NCBI GenBank assembly: GCA_036172245.1 | Contig: JAYWIR010000009.1 | Location: 2,914,001 to 2,978,000, forward strand | Reading direction: 5' to 3' | From: Raillietiella orientalis | Taxonomy: Eukaryota | Length of the DNA stretch: 64,000 nucleotides | Part shown: positions 901 to 63,130 of the stretch, piece by piece | Position numbering within the stretch: position 1 is the first letter of the stretch | How the letters are laid out: each line of letters begins with the position of its first letter | The notes under the pieces: model-generated | Told to the model about the DNA's origin: nothing | Database searches by the model: none | What the model saw: the letters and a program-made list of their open reading frames with translations, nothing else | Position numbers and translations under genes: made by a program

Positions 901-2885
901 GCTGTCTCATCCTTTTAGACATACTCTGCCACAATAGTGCGTAACCCTTGGACTCTTCGATGCTCCCTCTTTCGACCCCTCGCAAAGCTGCTCTTTCCTT
1001 CTACACCACCATGTTGCTTCTTCCTTCCACCCTTCTACATCACCATGTTTCTCCTTCCTTGGTTTCATCTACAGGGTTGCCTTTCCTTCCTTTCACTTCC
1101 TGACACCCCCCATTGCGCTGTGGCTGCTGGAACCGCCCTACACGGTGCTGTTGTAAAACCTTCGACGCCACTGTGCTGAAGTGGCGGTGTGGTGGTTTGA
1201 ACCAGAACAGTTTGTGCTAACCACAGAATGCTCTTCAACTCCCTTGTACCCTGCGTGCGACGAGGAACGCAAGGAACTCGTGGAGGTGGTGAATCCCTCT
1301 CGTTCGCGCGCCGACGAAGCTCCTGCACGGATGTCGTCGGAGATGGGAGGTGCACTGCTGCTGCACGAACCATGGCGCTCCCAGGTTTCCCACCAGGGAG
1401 GAGACGGGGAAAGGAAGCGAAGCTCTCGCAAGCCGAGCGCCGGCGCTGGCTCCGGACTGTCTTGCTCCTGCCGAGCGCTCGCTCACCGCCTCTGTCTGCG
1501 CTTTCCTCCGGACCCCCCTTGCGTTGCAGCAGGAGGTCTGTTGGTGGGACGAGTCCCGAACTTTGGCCGAGGACAGATCCGGCAATTTCGTCTTCAGGCG
1601 ACGCATGCACCGAGTCGGACGCGGAGCGGAGCCCGCCGAAGTTTCCTCTCTCCGTCATCGCGCAGGTCATCGTCAAGGCAAGCACGCAGAGTCCTTTACG
1701 CTGCTCTGGGTGAAAGGGTGGTGAGCGCGCTCCTGTTTCTTCATGGAAGATTCTCGTCTTTCGCCCACGTTTCCCAAGAGAGCGACACGCCATCGATGGG
1801 CCCTGCAGAGTGCGTCGCGGAAGAACTCTTCTTCCTGACCACTCTCTAGCGGGAGCTGCACGTGCTCTTTCCCCGATCCTCCAACCTCCTGTTTCCAGGA
1901 GACCAGAGGGCGTGGAAAGCGGGAAGGGTTCATGGGAGCAGGATCCCGCGCGCTAGGCATGGGGCAACGCGGTCGTCGGACTGTCCACTCCGCTCGGGGG
2001 CCTACTCACGGGAGAGAGAGAACCACCTCCGTGCAGACCGAAAGGAAGGAAGAGTCAGGGCGTGTGCCTTTCGTCGCCTCCTGCGTCTGGACCGGTGCAG
2101 GAGTTTCTTTGCGGTGGCCTCACTTTTGATTACGAAGGGCTCGAGAACCGAGGACTGCACGCGAAGGGTCCGTTTCCACCGCCGGCCCCTTGTCCTCCAA
2201 GCTTTCCGACTCTGGCGTGCAAGAATCCCTTCCCATTGTCCTCGGAGTGCGAATTCGAAACCGACCTGCCTGTGCGCTCCTCTTGGGAGAGCGGGGGGTT
2301 CCCTTTCGTACCTTCCCGCACCCCTCAGGCAACCGCTGGAGGCATACACGACTCCGGCAAGGGCTACTTGATCGCCATCCCCGGAAGCGGTCGGGCGCGA
2401 AGGATCGGGTCGTCGTCGTCCCCATCTTCCTCTTTCTTGTATCCCTTCCCGTCTTGGTAGAATATCTCTGCATCACGTTCGCGGCGCCACCATCACCTTA
2501 GCTCGGCCATTTTCGTCACCCGTCGTCGAGCGTTGCTGCAGAGGTCATCGTTTGGGCGGCAGGGCTCCACGGCCGAAGGCCCTCTGCGCCGTGACCCAGC
2601 AGTTGCTGACCTTCGCTTTTTCTCTTCTGCCAAGCCGAGGTCAATTGCCCTCCTTTAACGTGGCTCCGCTCGTGTCAGAGACGGTAGTTTCCTCCGCCTC
2701 GTCCGGGAGCTGCAACATCACGGGTGTTCATTATGGGAAGGGGTGAGCGGGCAGTTCGGTCCCCCTCCTCCCCCCCCGCGCTCCTTCTTCAATTCTTTTA
2801 GCCTTTCTAATCGGAGCCGCTTCATGACCACCGCCATTCTTTTCTGTGTTCTTCTGCACTCACGTTGGCTCTGCTCTTCTTTAAG

Positions 2886-3479
2886 TCAAGCCCGAGATCG
2901 ACCGGTCATCTCCGTACTCCAAGGCCGCCAGCGAGAACGGTGGCACTGCGCTACTCGTCTGCAAGGCCGCGGGCGCTCCGAACGTGACCTTCAGCTGGTC
3001 CCGCGAGGGCGCCCTCCTTGACACCAAGAGTAACGGCAAATACGAAAGCGAGGAGCGGCCCGTGGGCTTCACCACCTGGGAGGGGCGGCTGCTGGTGAAG
3101 AACGTCGGCGCGGCGGACTACGGCGGCTACGACTGCATCGCAAGGAACGAGCTGGGCTTCACGACTCACTGCGTGATGCTCAACGTGACCTCCGCTCCAG
3201 ACGCTCCCAAGTCCCTGAGAGTCCTCAACACCACCCACGACGCCGTCGCACTGCAGTGGACCCCAGGATTCAACGGTGGCCTGGCTCAGTACTTCCGCAT
3301 CCGTTACCGTCCAGTGGGAGAAACGGCCTACAAATATGTCGACGTCCCCACTGCAGAAGAGAACGCCTACGTGGTGGGAGACCTCAAGCTCGGAACGGAA
3401 TACACCTTGGCTGTGATGGCCTTCAACGAAAAAGGGCAGAGCGCATTTTCCAACGGGATGACCAAGGCGAAGACTGCCA
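2886..3479 (+). CDS. sns: Nephrin/sticks-and-stones-like cell adhesion protein, exon encoding last Ig (I-set) + FN3 domain
   Basis: Acceptor ttctttaag| at 2885 and donor |gtgagt at 3480, both phase 1. Open frame KPEIDRSSPYSKAASENGGTALLVCKAAGAPNVTFSW...DYGGYDCIARNELG (Ig C-W-DxGxYxC), then PDAPKSL...LQWTPGFNGGLAQYFRIRY...LKLGTEYTLAVMAFNEKGQS (FN3). Upstream exons not identified intact in this window. Confidence 0.93.
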
Positions 3480-4053
3480 GTGAGTACTCTGCCGTCCATC
3501 TCTTTGCGCGCGCATTTTTTAATGGCCCAAAGCGAAATGCGGCGCTGCGTCCCGTGGCCCCGTTCCCCATCAGCACGACGGTCGCACGAAAAGGAGCGCG
3601 CTCCGGATCCCTTGCTGCTTCTGCTGCTCCTCCTCTTCTTCCCGGACTCCGAGCATCCGTCTAAAGTCAACCTCTCCAGCATTTCCTCCTCTTGAAGCAA
3701 GCCCGGATTCTCTTCCTGCTTGGCCCTGAGTGTAGCAGCAGCTGCTGCTGCTAATTTCTTTCTCTTTCTCACAACCACCACCACCAACTCTTCCTCCTCC
3801 CTCTCCATCCTCTTCCTTATCACCACCACCACCAACAAGAACTCCTTGACTTCTCGTCTTCGTTTTCCTACTTTGATCACCATCTCTTTCCTTCTCATCG
3901 TTTTCCTGCTGCTCTTCGCCGTCGTCGTCGTCGTCGTCGTCATCTCTCCCCCCCCCCCCTCCTGCTTCGCCGCCGCTGCTGCGCTCGCCCGGCGTGATGC
4001 ATGCAGAAGATTCCAATCTAACCATGGGGTTCTCTCTGCATGGTTGTCTTCAG

Positions 4054-6949: not shown

Positions 6950-7640
6950 TCCTTGCATGGTAGCAGTCCCGGACGGATGGGGGTTCCCCGCGTTTTTAAG
7001 CAATGTCCTGTACCGAGAGGGTTAGGGCAGCGATGGAACCCAGCGTGGGAAGCATGAGACATGACCTCTATCTGACTCGACCACTCTTGTCTCCCCTGCG
7101 CACCTCACTCGCCAGCAACGGTAAGGTCGAGACTGAGAAGCTGCTGCGAGGAAGGCGACGGAGGACCGCCACCTGCCCACAGGGCTAAAGCAAAGAGAAC
7201 GAATCCGAGTGCGTACGGTTGGACACTAGGGAGCAGCCCGAGGACGAGCTGCTTACGCGTCAGCAGCGAAACTCCCGTGCAGGAGGGGCAGGGACGAGAT
7301 CCCTGGGCTCGCGAGCGACGTGCAGGGAGTTCACCGTCTCGCGCCACACGCGGGTGTGCACAACTGCTGGGCGCACGCCATGCTCGGAGTCGCTGCGCCG
7401 GAAGGGTAGCTTCGCACCCATGTGCACCAGCTGCCCTCTGCGGCACCCAGTCGTCGCGGGTTCCGATCCCGCCCGGGGAAGACTCGACGTCGAGAAATTG
7501 GAGGTGCGTCCTGGAACGCAGGACGGCGCTGGTTGGCCATTTCGGGTGCCCCGTTGACCAACCGGGACTGGAAGTGGTCTTTCCGGGTCCTTCCAGGACA
7601 ACCCGCACGAGGGTGGAGGGAAGTCGTTCCGTGCTGCAAC
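6950..7640 (-). mobile_element. Decayed L1/Tx1-type non-LTR RT fragment
   Basis: QPAPSCVPGRTSNF resembles the Tx1 QxCxVPGRxI motif. AKLPFRRSDSEH resembles DxEKAFDRVxH, and PSVQPYALGFVLFALAL resembles GVxQGxPLSxxLFxL. Frameshifted. Confidence 0.6.
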
Positions 7641-7649
7641 TGTCCGCCG

Positions 7650-8440
7650 GTCCTTAGTGTGCAGGTGGGCTGCGTGGATGTCGCTGGAGTACCGGATGCA
7701 CGAAGCCGCCGCCCGGTGCCTCATCCTCCCCGAGTTCTTTTTTCGAACTCCAAGGTCCTGTAGGACTTCCTCATTACCTGGACCCAAGGCTGCCAGAGAA
7801 CCAACGAGGAGAGCATGTACCCTCCATTGCTCCCCCTCTCTGCCTAGCCGGAGGGCTACTTCCGTGCGCTTTGCCCGTTTTCTCCTAGCTGTGCTGAACG
7901 CCTCTCTTCCATCCTCGTACGGGAAGCAGACGTCCAGCACCGTAAGCCTTTTTTCATCACCAAGTCTGGCCTTGAGAGGGAATTCGTTCCGGAAGCTATC
8001 TGGTAGTTCCTGGACACTTGGATCCACTTTGCTTCATCCGCTGCGGCCTTAATCATCTCTTGAATCGCGTCGTGTCGCACGTTCGACAGATGAGTGTGTC
8101 CCCTGCATCTGTTCAATATGTGAGGCAACGCTCCCTCTGCCGTCCGGTAGCACCGACACGCGCGTTCTTCTGGTTTCATCCTGGCTCCAGTCCTGACTGG
8201 TGGGACGTTCGATACGACTGCGTGGATGGACCGGTAGTTCCGGGATCTCGGGTGATCACCATTGGCGAGGAAGAAGCTTGAGGCACGGTGCATGCCCAAA
8301 CAGCTCGGCACATTGCTAGCCAGTTTCCTTCCTCCAGACGATCGGGAACCTCCCCCTGGTCAGCTGTGGCCTCCCTGTGAGCCCTTCGGTTGCGCAAATA
8401 GAGCCATCTATTCCCTGGGGAGGAACCCTCTATCGCGTAC
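7650..8440 (-). mobile_element. RLE-type (NeSL/Utopia/R2-like) non-LTR retrotransposon C-terminal fragment
   Basis: In order: DQGEV; SSFFLANG..YRSIHA..NVPP; CCHC finger CRCYRTAEGALPHILNRC; RHD; RPDL; LDVCFPYED; LLVGSLAALGPGNEEVL; CIRYSSDIHAAHL. This is the restriction-like endonuclease PD-(D/E)xK region, with frameshifts. Confidence 0.85.
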
Positions 8441-8449
8441 CATGGAGCT

Positions 8450-8990
8450 TTTTGACACCGAAGTGTCAAAAAGCGCGCTGCTTCTCCCTTTTTGAGAGAA
8501 CCCCTCAGTGAAATCGGGAGGTGTCCCTTCGGGGTTCTCTTCAGAGGAGGGAAGGAGCAGTCCGGAGTGGTAATTCAAGGAGCGGATCCTTTCTGGTTTC
8601 CCTTCGGAGAAGAAATGCGGAGCGGCCCCCACAAACCGGGAAGTCCCTCCGGAGAGGATAAGGGAGCGATTTCCTTCGGGGTTCCCTCCCAAACGTGAGA
8701 GAGGGACGGATCCCTTCCTCCGGAGATTTCCTGGATTCATAGGGTGGTCCCTCCGGTGTTGCTCTTAAGAATTGCCCTTGCTCTTAAGAATTACGCGTAC
8801 CCCCGGGTAGCGTGAGCAGTGCGAAAGAGCTTCGCCGGCGCCTCCCCCAGGGAGGCGGACGGTTCTTGAGTACTCGGAGATCCCCCAAAAAGAAAAAACA
8901 ACTGAAAGGAAAGCAACGAAAGTAGAGGAACCCAAAGCGATTTGCAGCACCCGGAACCCATTCTTCTCTCTCGCCGGGATGGAGTGCAAG
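8450..8990 (-). mobile_element. Decayed Tx1-like RT central/C-terminal fragment (same family as 58780-59155, 52800-52990, 53190-53480)
   Basis: Shares DNA words with those loci (ctggattcatagggt..ccctcc, cttcggggttctcttc). At 58.4-58.8 kb the family continues into the L1-type post-RT motif PEGRISILTS. Confidence 0.55.
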
Positions 8991-9039
8991 CGAAAGGTGG
9001 ACCGTGACTTCCGGGCCGCGGAAGGGTCCCTTCGAACCT

Positions 9040-9880
9040 CTCCTGACGAGGGAGTTGGTTGGTTGGACCACGGGCCAGCTCACAGACGCTGCAACCCCAA
9101 GTGCCCCACCGAAGGGACTATTGCACTGGGGTGAGCTGCTGAGAATCCCGCAGGAAGACCTCGAGTGGCCCCCAGTGCTGAGGAACGATCGTGCCCTCCC
9201 ACTGAAGTGGCAGGAGTCGGCACTCCTGCTGTTGCACTGAAGTCTCCCGTGCAGCGCCCGCTGTTCTCGCTGGACCCGGAGGAATGTGGACCCCGACTGC
9301 TGTAGGTGCGAGGAACTGGAATCCTTCCCCTACCGCACCTGCTTGTAGACTGTGTTGCCCTCTGGATCCTGTACTTCGATTCGCAATGGCCCTTGGTGCA
9401 CCAGTGAACGCTGCCAGTGACGTGGTGAAACGCCTCTTCGTTCGTGATGCCCTTTCGCCTGCCGCATCCCCAGCAGCTCTTTGCTGCTGCCTATGCGGGG
9501 TTGTGGCGGTCTGGCGCTACGCGAGGGTAGGACGGCACGATAAGACGCCACCTGCTACGTCCTGCGCTTCATCAGGACGACAGCAAGATGGCCCACCTGG
9601 GGCATACTCGGATGGAACTTGCTGGCATCCTGGAAAAAATGCAGCGAACGCCCTCCAGCACCCGGTGATCCCTTCCCTAGCCCTCTTAATTTTTGCATAT
9701 ATATACTTTATTTTCTTTTGAATTTTGTTTGTTCTTTGGTCTTCCTCTGCCGAGGCGAACCTCTCCGGCCTGAGCGACGGTTATTCGGCAGGTTCCGAGC
9801 ATTTCCGGACAATGTAGGGAGATGACCCTACACTTTGTATGTATATTTTTTATAGTAAACATCCCGGCATGACCGGGTGA
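9040..9880 (+). mobile_element. Tx1/L1-like element 3' end, copy A (zf-RVT region + 3' UTR)
   Basis: LEWPPVLRNDRALPLKWQESALLLLH*SLPCSARCSRW..VDPDCCRC..HLLVDC resembles zf-RVT, followed by ARWP and terminal DPFP, a T-rich tract and a structured 3' UTR. Clearly homologous to 59160-59975 and 31270-32030. Confidence 0.8.
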
Positions 9881-10639
9881 TAAACCGAACATCTCCTGAG
9901 GTCTCCTGAAGCCACCTGTTGGCCTCGCGATGCTCCTGCAGCGCTGCTCACCTTCGTCCGCCGTCCTTCCACGGAAGGCACCGCGCGACACCCTCCGGTG
10001 GGGCGACGTAACCGCGGGCACCAAGCGCGGTGTCTCCTCCCCCGCGACGTGCGAAGTTCGGGCTCGACTCCCTGGATTTGGGAACACCCTGTCGGCGAGG
10101 ACAGCTTCGAGCTCCGTGATGACGTCATCTCTGGCTTGCGGAAGTTCTTAGGAGGGCTGGTTGCACTCGGTCTCAGGAAGTAGCGCTAGTGAAGCTTTGG
10201 CTCCAGCGATAGCTGCGACCCCTTCCTCTCACCCCACCTTCTCCCTGCATCCTTCTTTCGTTCCCGAGGCGGCGGCGCTTCGTGTGCGCGTACTCGATCG
10301 GCAGTGCTGCCTTCGGACAAGCCACGATGTTTCCTGGCGCGCATGCCTCAGCGATTCTGGCGCTTTGCGGATGAGGGATGGAGCTAAGCAGGCAGCCGCC
10401 GAGTCCAAACATCCATGCAGCATCCGAGATTTTCGTGCCTCTGCACCGCGTCGTCGCCTGTGGCGCTTCTTCGTGCAGGGTACCAACTGCAGATTCCTCT
10501 GCCTCTAGCGGACGGAAAGGAATCGGAGGCAGCTGGTCGGGGAGGCTGCCGGCTCATCCTCATTAGAGGAACCCTTTTCCGTGGCGATCATCTTCCGGGC
10601 TACACGAGGCGCAGGAGTTCATGACTGGAAAGCCCGGGG

Positions 10640-30299: not shown

Positions 30300-31130
30300 A
30301 GCCTGGTCGTCTCCTTGAGCGCGACGTGGGAGGGGCAGTCCCACTCGATCCGTCTGGGGGACGGACGAGTACTCCAATTTGAAAAACTCGGCCTTCAAAT
30401 GACCTTGGAGTTTCGTTGGGTGACTCCCCTGTTGCAGATGAGCGGTCGGAACGCCTTCAGAAGGCTGAGGTGGCTGCCGGCCTGCTGCTCGACGGCGAGT
30501 TCGTCTTACCAGAACGGGCCGTCATCTGGGACATTCCTGTCGCTTCCTTCCTCCGCCCCTAATTTTTTGTTTTTCCGTCCCCTTATTCGGTCAAGATCCG
30601 GGCGCATTGCTCCTTGGAAGAGTCCTATGGGGCGCTGCAAGGTCCCCGATGCTCCAAAAGACTTGGTGACGCTGTGCCAGCATTCCCGCTGGGTCATCCT
30701 GATCACCACTGAGTCGGACTGCAGGTGCAGTTCCGACTTTTAACCCTTTATGGAGAATTGTGAGCTCGTCACTGGTGCGATCTGGCACGCCACATCCACC
30801 GGCAAAGCACCGCAAGCGTAGGACGTCTTTCGCTGCTGCCGCACAACCCACATAGGGAAACTGGATTTGTTTGCCCCCTGATGCATCTGTTCCCACTTCC
30901 GGTAGTCTACCGGTGGTTCTCAGGCCTCCCCTTAAACTGGAACGCCTGGCGGCTGAGACTGGAGTCCTGGGTTGCCTCTTTGGAAGTGCGCCCAGAGGAA
31001 CCGCGAAGGCGACAGAATCTCCTAGACAAACCTGCAGGAGATATCCCTCAGGAGTGGACGCAGTGGTCCGGGATGGCCATCCTGCAAAGCGCTGTCCGCC
31101 CTTAGGGTAAACCATGGCAGCAGCCAACTG
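30300..31130 (-). mobile_element. Decayed L1/Tx1-type RT fragment
   Basis: GVPD..LTILHKGL, IRMTQRECWHS (RGxRQGCPxS) and a downstream DD..F region. Frameshifted. Confidence 0.5.
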
Positions 31131-31269
31131 GTGGAATTGGAGTTCTCCTGCAGCATCGCAGGATAAAGAAAGAAACTCCTGGACGACTGCAAGACGAGCT
31201 AGCTGGTGAATGCCATTACTCCGCGTTTTCGGGCAACGGGACTTCTTCGGTGAAGCAACCTGCTTGGTT

Positions 31270-32030
31270 TAATACCCGGTACGGCTGGGACGTTTATTGT
31301 AAAAAATAAACATACATGTGTAGGTCCATCGGGCCTACATCGAAAATGCTCGGAACCTCCCGAGGAACCGACACGCAGGTCGGCGAGGTTCACCTCGGCA
31401 GCGGAGGGGGAGGGGGCAAACAAAAAATAAAAAATCAACAAAAATATATATACAAAAATTGGGAGGGTTAGGGAAAGGATCACCGGTGCTGGAGGTCGTC
31501 CTCTGTATCCTTTCCAGGATGCTGGCAAGTTTCATCCGATTGTGCCCCAGGTGGGGCCATCTTGCTGCCATCTGCAGGAAGTGCAGGGCGAAGCAGATGG
31601 CGTCCCTATCGTGACGTCATCCTCTCGTGTAGCTCCAGACCGCCATAATCCCGCGTAGGCAGCAGCAAAGAGCTGCTGCGGATGTGACACGAGAAGGGGC
31701 GTCGCGCACGAAGAGGCGCTTTGTCGTGTTCCTGGGATCGTCTATCGGTGTGCCAAGGTGTAACCCAACCACAGGGCCTGGAGGGCCACACAGTGTACAT
31801 GCAGGTGCGGGAGGGATTCCCGTTCCCTGCACCTGCAAGTGTGAGGTTTCATATCCCCCCGGGTCCATTGAGAGCAGAGGGCGTTGATGGGAGGCTCCAG
31901 TGCAACAGCAGAAGTGCCGACTCCTGCCACTTCAGGGGAGGGCCGGTTGTTCTTCAGCGCTGGGGACCACTCGAGTTTTTCCTGAAGGATTCCTAGCAGG
32001 CCACCCCAGCCCAATAGTCCTTTCGGTGGA
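31270..32030 (-). mobile_element. Tx1/L1-like element 3' end, copy C
   Basis: LEWSPAL..., CRCRERESLPHLHVHC, KRLFVRDA, AARWPHLG, DPFP, T-rich tract and the same 3' UTR motif as copy A. Confidence 0.8.
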
Positions 32031-46299: not shown

Positions 46300-46590
46300 G
46301 GTGTGGACACCTCCGTGTTCCCGCTCCGGTGGAAACCACAGGATGTCCTGCTGTTTCTGCAATGGGATTACTAGTGCCATCAGTGCAGACACCCGATTTC
46401 CGGGTGAGTTGCCTCCCCGAACTGTTCCAGGTGCGGGGCAATGGGATCGCTCCCGCACCTCCTGTTGGACTGCGGTGCCCTGGAGGACACGAGGCAGAGA
46501 CTGTCTTGGGCGCTCCGACAACCGCATGACCACGCTTTGGACGTGCGGCGACGCCTGTTCGCAGAAAGCGGGCTAAAGAAGGGCGTTGTG
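46300..46590 (+). mobile_element. zf-RVT fragment truncated by copy F
   Basis: PNCSRCGAMGSLPHLLLDC..DVRRRLF. Confidence 0.7.
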
Positions 46591-46599
46591 ATTTCACAT

Positions 46600-47450
46600 T
46601 CGGGTGCTCCGGGGCGTTTATTACTCTTACAGGGATCGATGGAGCCAAAAGGCTCACCGATTCCAATTAATACAACGAAAAAAAGGGGTAAGGCCATGGT
46701 CAGCCACGTCCAAGAAGGGAAAGGGGGATGAAACAAAAATAGAAAAAAAAGGAAACAAACAATAAAAACTTACAAAAAAATTAATTTGGGGGAAGGGAAG
46801 GGATCACATTCCGTGGTGGGTGAGGCGTCTGCATCTGTTGAAGGATACCGGCGAGCTCCTCTTCCTTCCTTTCCAGGTGGGACGACCACCTCGAAGCTAT
46901 CCTCCGGAAGCAGATGGCATGCAGGACAGCCCCCCTCGCTCTGACCTCTCTCGGCGTCGCACTTCGCCGCGATGACACCTCGCACGCAGCACAGCGCTGC
47001 GATTGCGGCTGCGGGCGTCATGGAGTCCCGCGCGAAGAGGGGCCTCAAAGAGTCTTTGGGACCGTCCACGGGGTGCGGAAGGGACTCAGAGAAACCCTCC
47101 CACAAGCCCCGAAGGGCGATGCACTGCACTAAGAGGTGGGGGAAGGTCTCCTTCTCCCCACACCTGCCACAGTTCGGCGATGAGCTTCCCCTCGTGCAGC
47201 GGCCCCGGCGCGCATTGCACGGGAGACCCCAGTGCGGTATCAGCAGCGCCGATTGCCGTCACTTGAGGGGAAGCAGCTTTCTGTCCGTAAACCCGGGGGC
47301 ACTTCTAACTCTTCGGTCTGAATGGAGAAGAGTCCGCCCCAACGTTCCAGCCCTTTGGATCCGGTTCTTGCTGTTGCTGCGTAAGCCAGCTGTCTCGTAG
47401 TCCAACCACCGATAGGCTTCCTGCGGGCTGAGATCTCGCAGGAAATCTCC
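46600..47450 (-). mobile_element. Tx1/L1-like element 3' end, copy F
   Basis: SALLILHWGLPCNARR..PNCGRCGEKETFPHLLVQC, DPFP, T-rich tract and AATAAA followed by a degenerate terminal hairpin. Confidence 0.75.
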
Positions 47451-57564: not shown

Positions 57565-59155
57565 CATCCGGTCACTCCGGGGGTTTATTGATAGAAAAAT
57601 AGTGTTTACATACGCCTGCAGTAGGACATTCGATCCTGCCAGGCTGCTTATAGTTACGGAAAGGAACCTGCAAGGAACTGGCACATAGACCAGCTGGGTT
57701 CGCCTCGGCAGCACAGGGCAAGGGGAGGCAAAGAAAAAGAAGAAAAAATAAGACAAAAAATGTACAGTTAAAAAAAGGAGGGATGGGGAGTCGGGAAGGG
57801 ATTACTGTGTGCTGAATGGTGTCCTCTGCATCCTTGTAAGGATGCCGGCAAGTTCCTGTTTCAAGACTTCCAGATGAGGCCATCTTGACTCTGTCCTCAT
57901 GAAGAGAACGGCAGAATAGATGGCGTGCCTGTCGTTCTGGCCTCTGGAGTTGCTGCTCCATGCAGCCACGGTCCCGCAGCGTAGGCAGCAAAGTGCTGCT
58001 GGGAATGCGACCTGCGTGCGGGCATCGCGCTGCTAGAGGCGCTAAAGTGAGTCTCTGGGGTTGCCACCGGGGATTCCAATGGTTGCGGCAAAGAGTCCCC
58101 AAAGGTGCCGGAGAGCAACACAGTCTACCAGAACTGTGCGGAAAGAGTGCCCTCTCCCCTCACGTTGCACAGTTTGGGATCACACACACCCGTGTCCACA
58201 GATGCCGGCGGGCGTTACACTGGAGGCCCCAGTGCAGCAGCATCAACGCCGACTTCTGCCACTTCAAGGGGAGGGTGCGGGTGCTGATCAGCACCGGGAG
58301 CAACTGCAATTCTTTTTCCGGAATACCCAGTAGCACGCCCTAGCGCAAAAGTCCACGGGGTCAAGCACTCGGGGTCCCAGCGTCGGTGAGCTGGTCCGTC
58401 GTCAACCCGCCCAGTCTTTTTGGCCCTTCGGAGATTTCCACAGTAACCTCCCATCTGGCGGTAAGGCTGCTACCCATGTGCTCCCTGAGGGAGGGCAGCG
58501 CGGCGGCGAGGGTGGTCCTGGTTGTCCGCGCACTCTCTCCACGGGATCTTCCAGGATCTCCTGGAGCTTGCAGTTGTTGTTGTGCGCGTACAGGAAACGT
58601 CGCACCTGTTCCACGCTTGGCTCTTGGATCCCCGCCCATGTGCGCATGGTTCTCTGCAACCGGGCACCACCGTTCGCGGTGCGGCACTGGTAGAAGACGA
58701 AAGCCCACGAATACCATCGTCGACTGGTCAGGATTGAAATTCGACCCTCCGGGGTGCTTCCAGAGCAACTCAAGGAGCTCCGGTGCCCTTCAGGGTTCTT
58801 CTCCGGTTGCGAAGGGCCCCCTCCCCCTCGGGGAGAGGAAGTGTTTCTGCGGAATGTTAAGAATTAGCGCCACTCACTTCAGGAAGTGCCCTTCAAGAAA
58901 TTGGGCGTCCCTTTGAGGTTCTCTTCGGAGGAACACCAACAAAGAGCGATTCCCTGCGGGTCCTCTCCCGAGAAGAAAACAGGAGCGTCCATCTCCGGGA
59001 GGTCCCTACGGAGGGAACAAGGAAGAGGAGGTCTCCTTCGAAGTTCCCCTACCAAGCATAAGAGGAAAGGACTCTCTTCCTCAGGAGCCCTTCCTGGATT
59101 CATAGGGTAGTTCCCTCCCGGGGTACCCGTATCTTGAGATCGGTGGAAGTGCGAA
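57565..59155 (-). mobile_element. Tx1/L1-like element, copy D (RT C-term, post-RT, zf-RVT, 3' UTR); upstream part resumes at ~60025-60340
   Basis: PEGRISILTS (LSxxGR), a zf-RVT segment homologous to copies A/C/F, the DPFP-equivalent gtaatcccttccc and the 3' UTR motif at 57567-57711. 60025-60130 matches 8830-8950, which directly adjoins the same RT segment at the 8.5-kb locus. Confidence 0.75.
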
Positions 59156-59159
59156 AAAA

Positions 59160-59975
59160 TTAGGTGGGTAGACCACCGGCCAGCTCACGGACGCTGCGAT
59201 CCCAAGGGTCCCACCGAAGGGACTCTTGCGATGAGGCGATCTTCTAAGAATATCAAAGGAAGACCTCGAGTGGCCCCCAGTGCTGAGGAACGATCGTGCC
59301 CTCCCGCTGAAGTGGGAGGAGTCGGCGCTTCTGCTGTTGCACTGGGGTCTCCCGTGCAGCGCCCGCTGCTCTCACTGGACCCAGGGAAATGTGGATCCGA
59401 ACTGCTGCAGGTGCAGGGAACGGGAATCCCAAATTCCTCACCTGCTTGTAGACTGTGTTGCCCTTCCGGCCCCTGTGGTTGCCTTACGCAGTGGCCCTTG
59501 TGCACCGACGGACAATCCCAGGGACGCCTCTTAGTGCGCGATGCCTTTACGCCTGCCTCATCCCTAGAAGCTCTTTGCTGACTAAGTGGGACTGTGGCGG
59601 CCTGGAGCTACGCGAGAGGAGGATAGCGTGATCGGGGCGCCACCTGCTACGCCCTGTGCTTCCTGCGGACAGCAGCCAAATGGCGCCACCTGGGGCATAC
59701 TCAGAAGGAACTTGATTCCTTGATCCTGGAAAGGATGCAGAGGACGTCCTCCAGCACTGGGTGATCCCTTCCCTAACCCACCCAATTTTTGTATATATAC
59801 TTTCTTATTTTTATTTTTGTTTGGTCTCTCCCCACTCTGCTGCCAAGAAGGACCTCGCCGGCCTGAGCGACGGTTATTAGGCAGGTTCCGAGCATTTCTG
59901 GACAATGTAGGGCGATGACCCTACACTTTGTATGTTCATTTCATATAATAAACGTCCCGGCGTGACCGGGTGGTA
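59160..59975 (+). mobile_element. Tx1/L1-like element 3' end, copy B (5'-truncated, nested antisense in D)
   Basis: LPLKWEESALLLLHWGLPCSARCSHWTQGNVDPNCCRCRERESQIPHLLVDC, DPFP and the 3' UTR motif. Closest relative of copy A. Confidence 0.85.
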
Positions 59976-62399: not shown

Positions 62400-63130
62400 G
62401 AGGCGGTGCAGGCGCGCAGGAGAACGGCGGTGGCACTCCGGGGACGAAAAGGCTGCCATGCAGCTAGACTACCCCCCGTAGAGGGCTCTGGACTCCGACT
62501 AGACCTGGCACCACAGGGAAAAAAGCCAGTGGCGGCACCCGACGTCGCCCGTCCCTCCCCCAGGGACGTGGCCAAACGCCTTTTCCAACTCGAGATACCG
62601 CGCGGCCAGCCTAGTCGTCAGCAGCCACTTCGCGCTTTCCCGGGGTTGTGGCGGCCGACGAAAGAGGCCGCAGCGAAATCAGGGATGCTGTTCGCTCTCC
62701 TCCATCCGCTTCCTGAGGATGACAACAAGGTGGTTCCAAGGTCAGGTGGAAAGGCGGAAGGTCCGCTGATCCTTGAAAGTATCAGAGAACGCCGGACAAC
62801 AGTCGGTGGTCCCCATCCGCACACTCGAGGTTTCCCATTTATTTTCAGTTTGTCTTCCTCCTCCTCTCTCTTGCCAAAGTGAACCTCGCCAGTCTGCGCA
62901 TCGGCATCATGGCAAGTTTCAAGTTTATTTGAACGTGGCAGGACCCCCACATTTCCATCAGTGGAACTTGGAAAGAGGAAGAATGGGCAACGCCACCGAT
63001 GATCATTCTTCGCTCCTCCCCCCAGGTGCTAATTCGGGCCGCAGCTTTTGTTTTTGGACCGATAGCATTTTCGTACTCCGCACGTTTGTTTGTGTATTTA
63101 CATAAAATAGGTACCCTCCGTGACCGGGTC
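62400..63130 (+). mobile_element. Diverged Tx1-like 3' end, copy H
   Basis: RDVAKRLF, TTRW, the 3' UTR motif tgccaaagtgaacctcgcc...ggc..tggcaagtttc (62872-62920) and terminal gtgaccggg. Confidence 0.55.

Follow-up and report, generated by a model that had tools for sequence, protein, structure and literature searches.

A conserved, structured motif lies in the 3' untranslated region (UTR) of a group of L1/Tx1-type LINEs of Raillietiella orientalis, the copies of which end without poly(A). We propose, at a probability of about 0.52, that the whole tail may serve as a nested multi-hairpin, stringent-type template signal for ORF2p, of which the motif would be an auxiliary, remodellable module. 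A preliminary description of the window (the entire 64,000-nt stretch of DNA analyzed here) had noted letters in the order a-b-hairpin-a'-b' and had read them as a functional cis element built on an H-type pseudoknot. The letters are there in copies A (9748-9795), B, C, D, and H, at the positions given below, and the conserved structured LINE 3'-UTR element stands; the H-type pseudoknot is unsupported. The second hairpin that had been seen after the motif in copies A, B, and C is also present in D. A terminal hairpin, a hairpin over AAUAAA, and a 3' UTR of subfamily E were overlooked in that description. The features of the window are as follows.

9033-9046, plus: 5' target-site duplication of copy A, 14 bp, 1 mismatch relative to the 3' one
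9047-9885, plus: copy A, a 5'-truncated subfamily-A LINE (ORF2 C-terminal remnant and 3' UTR), no poly(A)
9666-9668, plus: ORF2 stop TGA of copy A, inside TGATCCC; DPFP is out of frame
9688-9747, plus: 3' UTR tract of copy A, U-rich and then C-rich
9748-9754, plus: stem a of copy A, 5' strand (5-bp core, 9748-9752)
9757-9761, plus: strand b of copy A, the proposed pseudoknot partner; pairing unsupported
9764-9781, plus: inner hairpin of copy A, 6 bp, conserved CUGCGW loop at 9770-9775; decayed here
9784-9790, plus: stem a of copy A, 3' strand (a'; core, 9786-9790)
9791-9795, plus: strand b' of copy A, abutting a' directly
9813-9832, plus: hairpin 2 of copy A, covarying between lineages
9838-9860, plus: U-rich/poly(A)-signal hairpin of copy A, decayed; hexamer AGTAAA at 9854-9859
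9863-9884, plus: terminal hairpin of copy A, CCCGG-loop-CCGGG (9863-9877), then a short A run, the element end
9886-9899, plus: 3' target-site duplication of copy A
31275-31400, minus: tail of copy C (motif, 31353-31400; hairpin 2, 31319-31339; terminal hairpin, 31275-31289)
31290-31313, minus: poly(A)-signal hairpin of copy C, intact
46591-46806, minus: subfamily-E 3' UTR with AATAAA and terminal hairpin
57567-57710, minus: tail of copy D, subfamily D (motif, 57664-57710; hairpin 2, about 57618-57642; terminal hairpin, 57567-57581)
59841-59970, plus: tail of copy B (motif, 59841-59888; hairpin 2, 59906-59925; AATAAA, 59947-59952; terminal hairpin, 59956-59970)
62872-62919, plus: motif of copy H, a rare lineage; terminal remnant near 63100-63129

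The element group, its copies, and its targets

In L266, a full-length copy, the ORF1 frame spans 682 aa and includes a zinc knuckle, and ORF2 encodes endonuclease, reverse transcriptase (RT), and zf-RVT domains. RVT_1 scores above the Pfam cut-off, zf-RVT and zf-CCHC score near or just below it, and Exo_endo_phos (E 6e-5 on a 141-aa piece) falls just under it; the closest solved protein to ORF2 is human L1 ORF2p (E 3e-30). The combination of an APE endonuclease, an RT, a C-terminal zinc domain, and a gag-like ORF1 is that of L1/Tx1-type non-LTR retrotransposons, and the copies show the variable 5' truncation and target-site duplications of non-LTR elements. The nearest named database proteins are L1-type ORF2s at only 24-29% identity, with no named Tx1 reference among them. 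Judged by these comparisons, the L1/Tx1-type assignment stands, and a placement in Tx1 proper, in line with the target preference described below, is putative. A metagenome protein, P0031, is very close to ORF2 (E 8e-236), so that relatives do exist outside the R. orientalis assembly; searches for relatives in other organisms, by protein or by motif pattern, gave none in metagenome contigs. We found no account of this tail in the literature covered, which excluded Repbase and most subscription papers.

All DNA evidence on the tail comes from one genome, the 210-Mb R. orientalis assembly, in which tail searches gave 1256 first-look candidates with the A tail as query, 1448 with the D tail, and 288 with the E tail. 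An exact pattern of the motif's 3' part has 559 matches genome-wide, and a pattern of AATAAA plus the terminal hairpin has 1809; reversed-pattern controls gave 0 for both, indicating that the motif is not due to chance. For closer examination, 293 distinct 3' ends were collected with a profile of the coding end, a set that is enriched by the queries and non-random. Seven subfamilies account for 222 of these ends (A, 42; D, 37; J, 31; K, 29; F, 28; E, 28; G, 27), and the remaining 71 belong to rarer lineages. A tree of the coding end alone recovers the subfamilies, with low support for A. The usual order of the tail is stop codon, U-rich and then C-rich tract, motif, variable linker, hairpin 2, U-rich stretch, AATAAA, terminal hairpin, and 2-5 A's.

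The "DPFP C terminus" from which the motif had been located turned out to be mostly a frame artifact. ORF2 ends at the TGA of TGATCCC in subfamilies A (24/26 copies), D (21/23), F (26/28), G (26/26), and J (20/24); DP.. is in frame in K (24/26) and IP.. in E (19/21), so that DPFP itself is read only in K and, via a 1-nt deletion, in copy C. The word TGATCCCTTCCC at the ORF2 stop (window positions 9666-9677) is conserved in all subfamilies despite three different frames, which points to noncoding constraint.

Insertion sites differ between the subfamilies and are in many cases precise positions within ORF2 of sister LINEs, entered in antisense orientation. Flanks antisense to ORF2 follow the 3' end in 18/28 F, 20/25 G, 10/25 E, 6/23 K, 5/21 A, 3/23 J, and 1/26 D copies. 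Target-sequence preference of this kind is a trait of the Tx1 clade, for which a preference for other transposons is known; Tx1D, Keno, Kibi/Koshi, and Tx1-Mar, like the elements here, belong to the APE-type L1 group and have subfamily-specific targets that include transposons (Kojima 2015, PMC4494074). Unlike theirs, the targets here are exact antisense sites in the ORF2 of sister LINEs. The available parts of that Tx1-clade account give no tail structure.

Insertions of F lie at "ITIVNADAK," those of G at "AVDLxKAF," those of A at "GLLxW," and those of K at "QESAL." In the window, copy C and the subfamily-E copy both sit antisense inside the ORF2 of a relative, with 3' flanks at 31100-31265 and about 46400-46590, respectively. 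Because the target continues into the distant flanks, comparison with them is no independent control. The F copy L266 has an altered sequence at its own F site (L266:1525-1540 and 7425-7440), hinting at self-avoidance. Next to a G tail that lies inverted at the KAF site, L265:5030-7240 has an F-like RT start followed by G-type sequence; this may be a recombinant or the product of an inversion during insertion.

Conservation and covariation along the tail

AAUAAA and the terminal hairpin are the sole near-universal piece of the tail. This terminal module (the hexamer and a CCCGG/CCGGG hairpin) is present at 230/293 ends, in all seven subfamilies, and also at 11/28 ends without the motif; its hexamer is AATAAA in 182 of the 230 modules. 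Of the 202 ends that continue with an A run, 199 have its first A 20-22 nt past the hexamer. A conserved 3'-terminal stem-loop with such precise ends is the pattern of stringent-type elements. One K copy, L251, has A15 exactly at the usual end, the sole long A run among the 202, suggesting that its template was polyadenylated. The terminal stem is nearly fixed, and the loop depends on the subfamily (CGTGA, CGCAC, CGAAAC, and CATAT); since the stem barely varies, its pairing is without proof from covariation.

Conservation within the motif is uneven. Among five subfamily consensuses (J excluded), identity is 100% for the stem-a strands and 93% for the loop, followed by 68% for b/b', 66% for the inner stem, 51% for the linkers, and 32% for the bases just downstream; the fastest codon class, taken as the third position, is 60% identical among five subfamily consensuses. 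All five core pairs of stem a form in the consensuses of A, D, F, G, and K, and one of the five forms in J.

Covariation was assessed on two sets of lineage representatives by shuffle tests, which ignore relatedness. The first set comprised 37 representatives (6 subfamily copies and 31 singles); left out were 8 near-duplicate or truncated singles, 2 without a usable reference, and 2 more. The second set, of 61, added 24 of 40 further tails. Of these 40, 32 had been selected because their terminal loops were unusual and 8 came from the motif list; 9 were dropped for want of the motif, 3 for deletions, 3 as redundant, and 1 for an insertion. The covariation claimed from a few copies holds in these larger alignments for the inner hairpin and modestly for stem a; there is none for stem b. 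Hairpin 2 was assessed on a set of its own.

For the inner hairpin, 0/500 shuffles scored as high as the observed alignment on either set, and its closing pair among the 61 representatives is U-A in 38, C-G in 7, G-C in 6, and U-G in 6. Under a tree-based null, in our own re-implementation rather than R-scape, pair 24-31 alone passes in 237 copies (E 0.003 over the 18 proposed pairs but only 0.18 over all 1176 column pairs). RNAalifold recovered the inner hairpin alone from the 37 representatives. Hairpin 2 also covaries (further pair types, 1/500 shuffles), in a set of 23/64 rows chosen after folding and hence biased toward pairing. By eye, the seven consensuses show no consistent complementarity between the loop of hairpin 2 and the terminal loop, and a kissing interaction of the two was dropped.

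Stem a is highly conserved, and its covariation is modest. Cells changed on both sides exceed expectation (6/500 shuffles on 37 representatives, 0/500 on 61), the stricter counts are not significant (pairs, 223/500; types, 97/500), and few lineages, related to one another, account for the both-side changes. Within just the 25 new tails, pairing is 94% for the inner stem, 88% for a, and 76% for b.

The individual compensatory changes named earlier fared unequally. The C-G to U-A change in the inner stem is real and fixed in subfamily D (34/37 copies). The inner "A-T to G-C" change between copies C and D dissolves on comparison, as A-U is rare (2/42 subfamily-A copies) and the A consensus has G-C. 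The stem-a change of copy H from G-C to A-U recurs, being found in 3/37 representatives, H included. That pair is CpG linked, and decay is mildly raised in subfamily A only (0.129 versus 0.074 transitions); we therefore set aside CpG decay as the origin of the apparent compensation, keeping it as a minor confound for this one change.

Some lineages have moved with parts of the tail remodeled or gone. Subfamily E lost the 3' half of the motif and hairpin 2, gained another long hairpin (L068-L097), and reads ORF2 past the usual stop, yet it amplified; the motif is dispensable in E. The E-type 3' UTR of the window keeps a relic of the motif's 5' half at about 46691-46711 and has the other long hairpin at 46633-46664. 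Subfamily J, with its single stem-a core pair, likewise amplified. The same 9-nt deletion, lying between two CCCGG words, has cost L272 and L297 one inner arm and may mark a small lineage that moved without the full motif. In the distant lineages L277, L298, and L098 (near 4420), the inner hairpin and its CUGCGW loop are kept amid unrelated flanks, which suggests that the hairpin may be the oldest part; L277 and L298 have neither a nor b.

The window copies are decayed: A keeps 4/6 inner pairs and H keeps 4/5 b pairs. Eight copies were folded one by one, and none clearly outdoes its shuffles (z, -1.6 to +0.6).

Template signal or 3'-end processing

It is demonstrated that the tail is conserved, that the inner hairpin and hairpin 2 covary, that the copies have precise ends and target-site duplications, and that some lineages have lost parts; we infer every mechanistic step that follows, with protein binding taken from precedent. 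The RNA would fold as a nested chain that starts with an interrupted stem-loop, in which stem a closes an internal loop over the inner hairpin, and continues with hairpin 2, often a hairpin over AAUAAA, and the terminal 5-bp hairpin. For ORF2p, the tail would be a template signal of the stringent type to which it binds. Reverse transcription would begin where the terminal hairpin directs it, at the initial 2-5 A's that lie 20-22 nt beyond AAUAAA, and from such a start no poly(A) would be copied. The upstream stem-loops, including the originally described motif, would add affinity or lineage specificity and could be remodeled, as in J, or lost, as in E.

Known systems, as far as the cited sources describe them in the parts available, offer precedents. 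Eel UnaL2 and zebrafish ZfL2-1 and ZfL2-2 share with the present tail a short stem-loop by the 3' end, a conserved stem, a family-specific loop, and the lack of a long poly(A), and in ZfL2 the stem is read generically and the loop specifically by the protein (PMC4176376). Those are L2-clade elements with one stem-loop; the elements here are of the L1/Tx1 type, have three to four hairpins, place AAUAAA directly before the terminal hairpin, and end in 2-5 A's, and their protein binding is predicted. The 3' core of R2Bm likewise has stem-loops with unequal roles, two being needed for binding, the upstream ones adding affinity and the 3'-terminal one positioning the template (PMC11194090); the corresponding roles here would be analogous. 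R2Bm belongs to another clade, and the consulted portion of that account describes no AAUAAA module. Stringent tails are also known from L1-clade lineages: LINE1-1_ZM and L1-1_CR, compared here by description, have a conserved 3' hairpin with compensatory changes (Ohshima 2012, PMC3472496). They are elements of plants and algae with a single hairpin, and L1-1_CR ends in poly(A) repeats. In vertebrate A-clade R2, a proposed pseudoknot followed by a stem-loop ends a site-preferring non-LTR element, as it might here (10.1101/2024.11.11.623112). R2 belongs to the RLE elements; its knot, situated in the last 65 nt, is bound by ZnF3, and compensatory rescue proved the pairing. The knot stem here, by contrast, lacks covariation, starts >100 nt upstream of the element end, and is missing from subfamilies that amplified.

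Several observations weigh against the template-signal reading. The terminal stem is almost invariant, pair 24-31 reaches only E 0.18 over all column pairs, and the hairpin-2 set is biased toward pairing. The motif starts >100 nt upstream of the end, beyond the last 65 nt resolved in vertebrate R2 (10.1101/2024.11.11.623112), subfamily E amplified without it, and stem a fails the stricter counts.

L2, R1, and R2 elements provide familiar examples of structured template signals, whereas few have been documented in the L1/Tx1 group. The lineages that kept, remodeled, or lost single modules while holding one terminal hairpin form a natural series, and comparing them could reveal what an L1-type ORF2p requires of its RNA if poly(A) is not copied. 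Newly added here are a test of stem b at the level of subfamilies, which goes against it, the recognition that E and J lost parts of the motif, the corrected ORF2 frame, and the hairpin that buries AAUAAA.

That last hairpin bears on an alternative that we regard as unlikely, namely that the tail acts mainly in 3'-end processing or stability of the RNA. The U-rich tract and AAUAAA would drive cleavage, the hairpin would tune cleavage, as the HIV-1 polyA hairpin does, or permit read-through into the target site, and the upstream stem-loops would protect the RNA or position it for host factors. The presence of AATAAA in 182 of the 230 modules, its constant spacing from the element end, and the one A15 copy are consistent with this, as are the precedents of the HIV-1 polyA hairpin (PMC2645353) and of R1Bm, which requires downstream target sequence for accurate initiation (PMC7265360), each as far as the cited excerpts go.

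The hairpin over AAUAAA directly precedes the terminal hairpin and differs in length and letters between lineages. It buries the hexamer in the consensuses of A, D, G, J, and K (≤4/200 shuffles; ≤8/300 under a 34-nt local shuffle), and burial is above the shuffle mean in 26/32 other copies. With shorter shuffle windows, however, the signal is weaker for D and lost for J, in which the partner strand to the hexamer lies further upstream. The partner word is also antisense AATAAA, which could account for the signal without pairing. The hairpin is absent from F and E, both of which have precise ends, and F is strongly targeted. We keep the template-signal reading as the preferred account of the tail.

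Stems a and b and the less probable readings

The strands of the motif are complementary in the crossing order a-b-a'-b' of an H-type pseudoknot. The model of the preliminary description was that a and b form together; in its viable version, a true pseudoknot that is shortened (about 5+4 bp) or kinked would be bound by ORF2p, like the pseudoknot-hinge-stem of vertebrate R2. We consider this quite improbable, and as a pseudoknot discovery the motif is weak, its defining stem b being unsupported.

An H-type pseudoknot calls for covariation in both stems and for loop lengths that let both stems stack, and neither was found. Both-side changes in b fall below expectation (391/500 shuffles as high on 37 representatives and 484/500 on 61, with 7 observed versus 10.7 shuffled), and 352/500 shuffles match its covariation score; b varies more than a and still shows no covariation. 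The five pairs of b are complete in the A and D consensuses, and 4/5 form in F, G, K, and J, so that four of these six consensuses have a mismatch in b. Where a lineage changed one side of a Watson-Crick b pair, pairing was kept seven times and broken six times.

The geometry is equally unfavorable. With no nucleotide between a' and b' (loop 3, 0 nt) and 2-4 nt in loop 1, the loops are the opposite of those of a classical H-type pseudoknot. On idealized A-form geometry, a coaxial stack of 7+5/6 bp needs 34-38 Å, and two nucleotides reach 14 Å; a 5+5-bp stack is borderline, and 5+4 bp or less fits. Folding of A, F, G, and K gives stem a, with a b probability of 0.0, and a plus the inner hairpin beats b plus the inner hairpin by 6-14 kcal/mol in these four, as computed by a program that cannot score pseudoknots. 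In no lineage is b seen to be required together with a.

On the other side, b and b' are about 80% complementary over the 61 representatives versus 20-57% in slid registers, older K copies show a C-G to U-A change at the junction (depending on the alignment), the 5+4-bp form is sterically reachable, and R2 provides a precedent with compensatory rescue, as reported in the accessible part of 10.1101/2024.11.11.623112. Other partners for b within the motif (columns 22-26 and 34-38) were tried and rejected, as they pair at 0.73 and 0.63 versus 0.81 for b'.

In subfamily J, where a is reduced to 1/5 pairs, b extends outward to 6 bp and folds in its place with a probability of 0.95. Together with the opposite preference of A, F, G, and K and the additional potential partners of strand b within the motif, this could mean that a and b are mutually exclusive closures of one inner hairpin, as a conformational switch or as two lineage-specific solutions. 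We hold that to be very unlikely, given that b shows no covariation and that the sister lineages of J have a G-G mismatch in b (read by eye).

A bolder combination, which we rate as a long shot on a par with the pseudoknot, would make the tail a switchable module new for L1-type elements. The shortened a/b knot or the a-to-b exchange would be the docking site of ORF2p, and the hairpin over AAUAAA would let some transcripts read into the flank, so that the RNA would carry a copy of the site that its lineage uses in sister LINEs and pair with the nicked DNA. If true, tail structure and antisense targeting of relatives' ORF2 would be one mechanism.

We find it scarcely credible that the conservation reflects a DNA element (a repeated CYRG half-site or a promoter-like sequence) or mere inheritance without function. 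The inner and terminal arms are built on self-complementary CCGG, so that direct and inverted repeats coincide, and E keeps the 5' half of the motif without its partner; against this, compensatory changes fall both inside and outside the CCGG word (C-G/U-A/G-C at 24-31), the G-U wobbles agree with the sense RNA strand, and the stem-a strands and loop are far more conserved than the linkers.

Topological resemblance to the 5' half of HDV, in the order P1-P2-P3-P1' and in an 8-nt loop that ends in CG, is all that speaks for a self-cleaving HDV-like ribozyme, to which we give virtually no credence: b' directly follows a', leaving no room for P4 or a J4/2 strand with the catalytic C; the inner stem has 5-6 bp, and the 3-bp P3, L3 consensus, P1.1, and J4/2 of HDV are lacking; an HDV P3-L3-P3 descriptor matches 4/293 UTR stretches, none at the motif in sense; and the UTR stretches contain no hammerhead core. 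Rfam 15 gave 0 matches at the gathering threshold in the window and, at E ≤ 1 on 12 loci, one subthreshold match outside the tail. On these descriptor and covariance-model searches, HDV-like, hammerhead, and Rfam families are rejected, and self-cleavage is unsupported.

Several features of the window and of other loci are unrelated to the tail or lie beside it. A short direct repeat (about 16 bp, twice) is located upstream of copy A at 8759-8793, outside its target-site duplication. Locus L264:3-3650 has two long AT-rich ORFs (868 and 268 aa) in GC-rich surroundings, with no Pfam match above the cut-off. Three repeat pairs of 88-92% identity (14330-14787/21050-21506, 15692-16550/61104-61957, and 40438-40681/42079-42322) are unrelated to the tail. 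Fragments at 7076-8360 on the minus strand read like what we take to be the C-terminal part of a restriction-like-endonuclease LINE. A host gene exon at 2885-3664 on the plus strand encodes Ig and fibronectin-III domains (Pfam), and further likely exons extend to about 5900.
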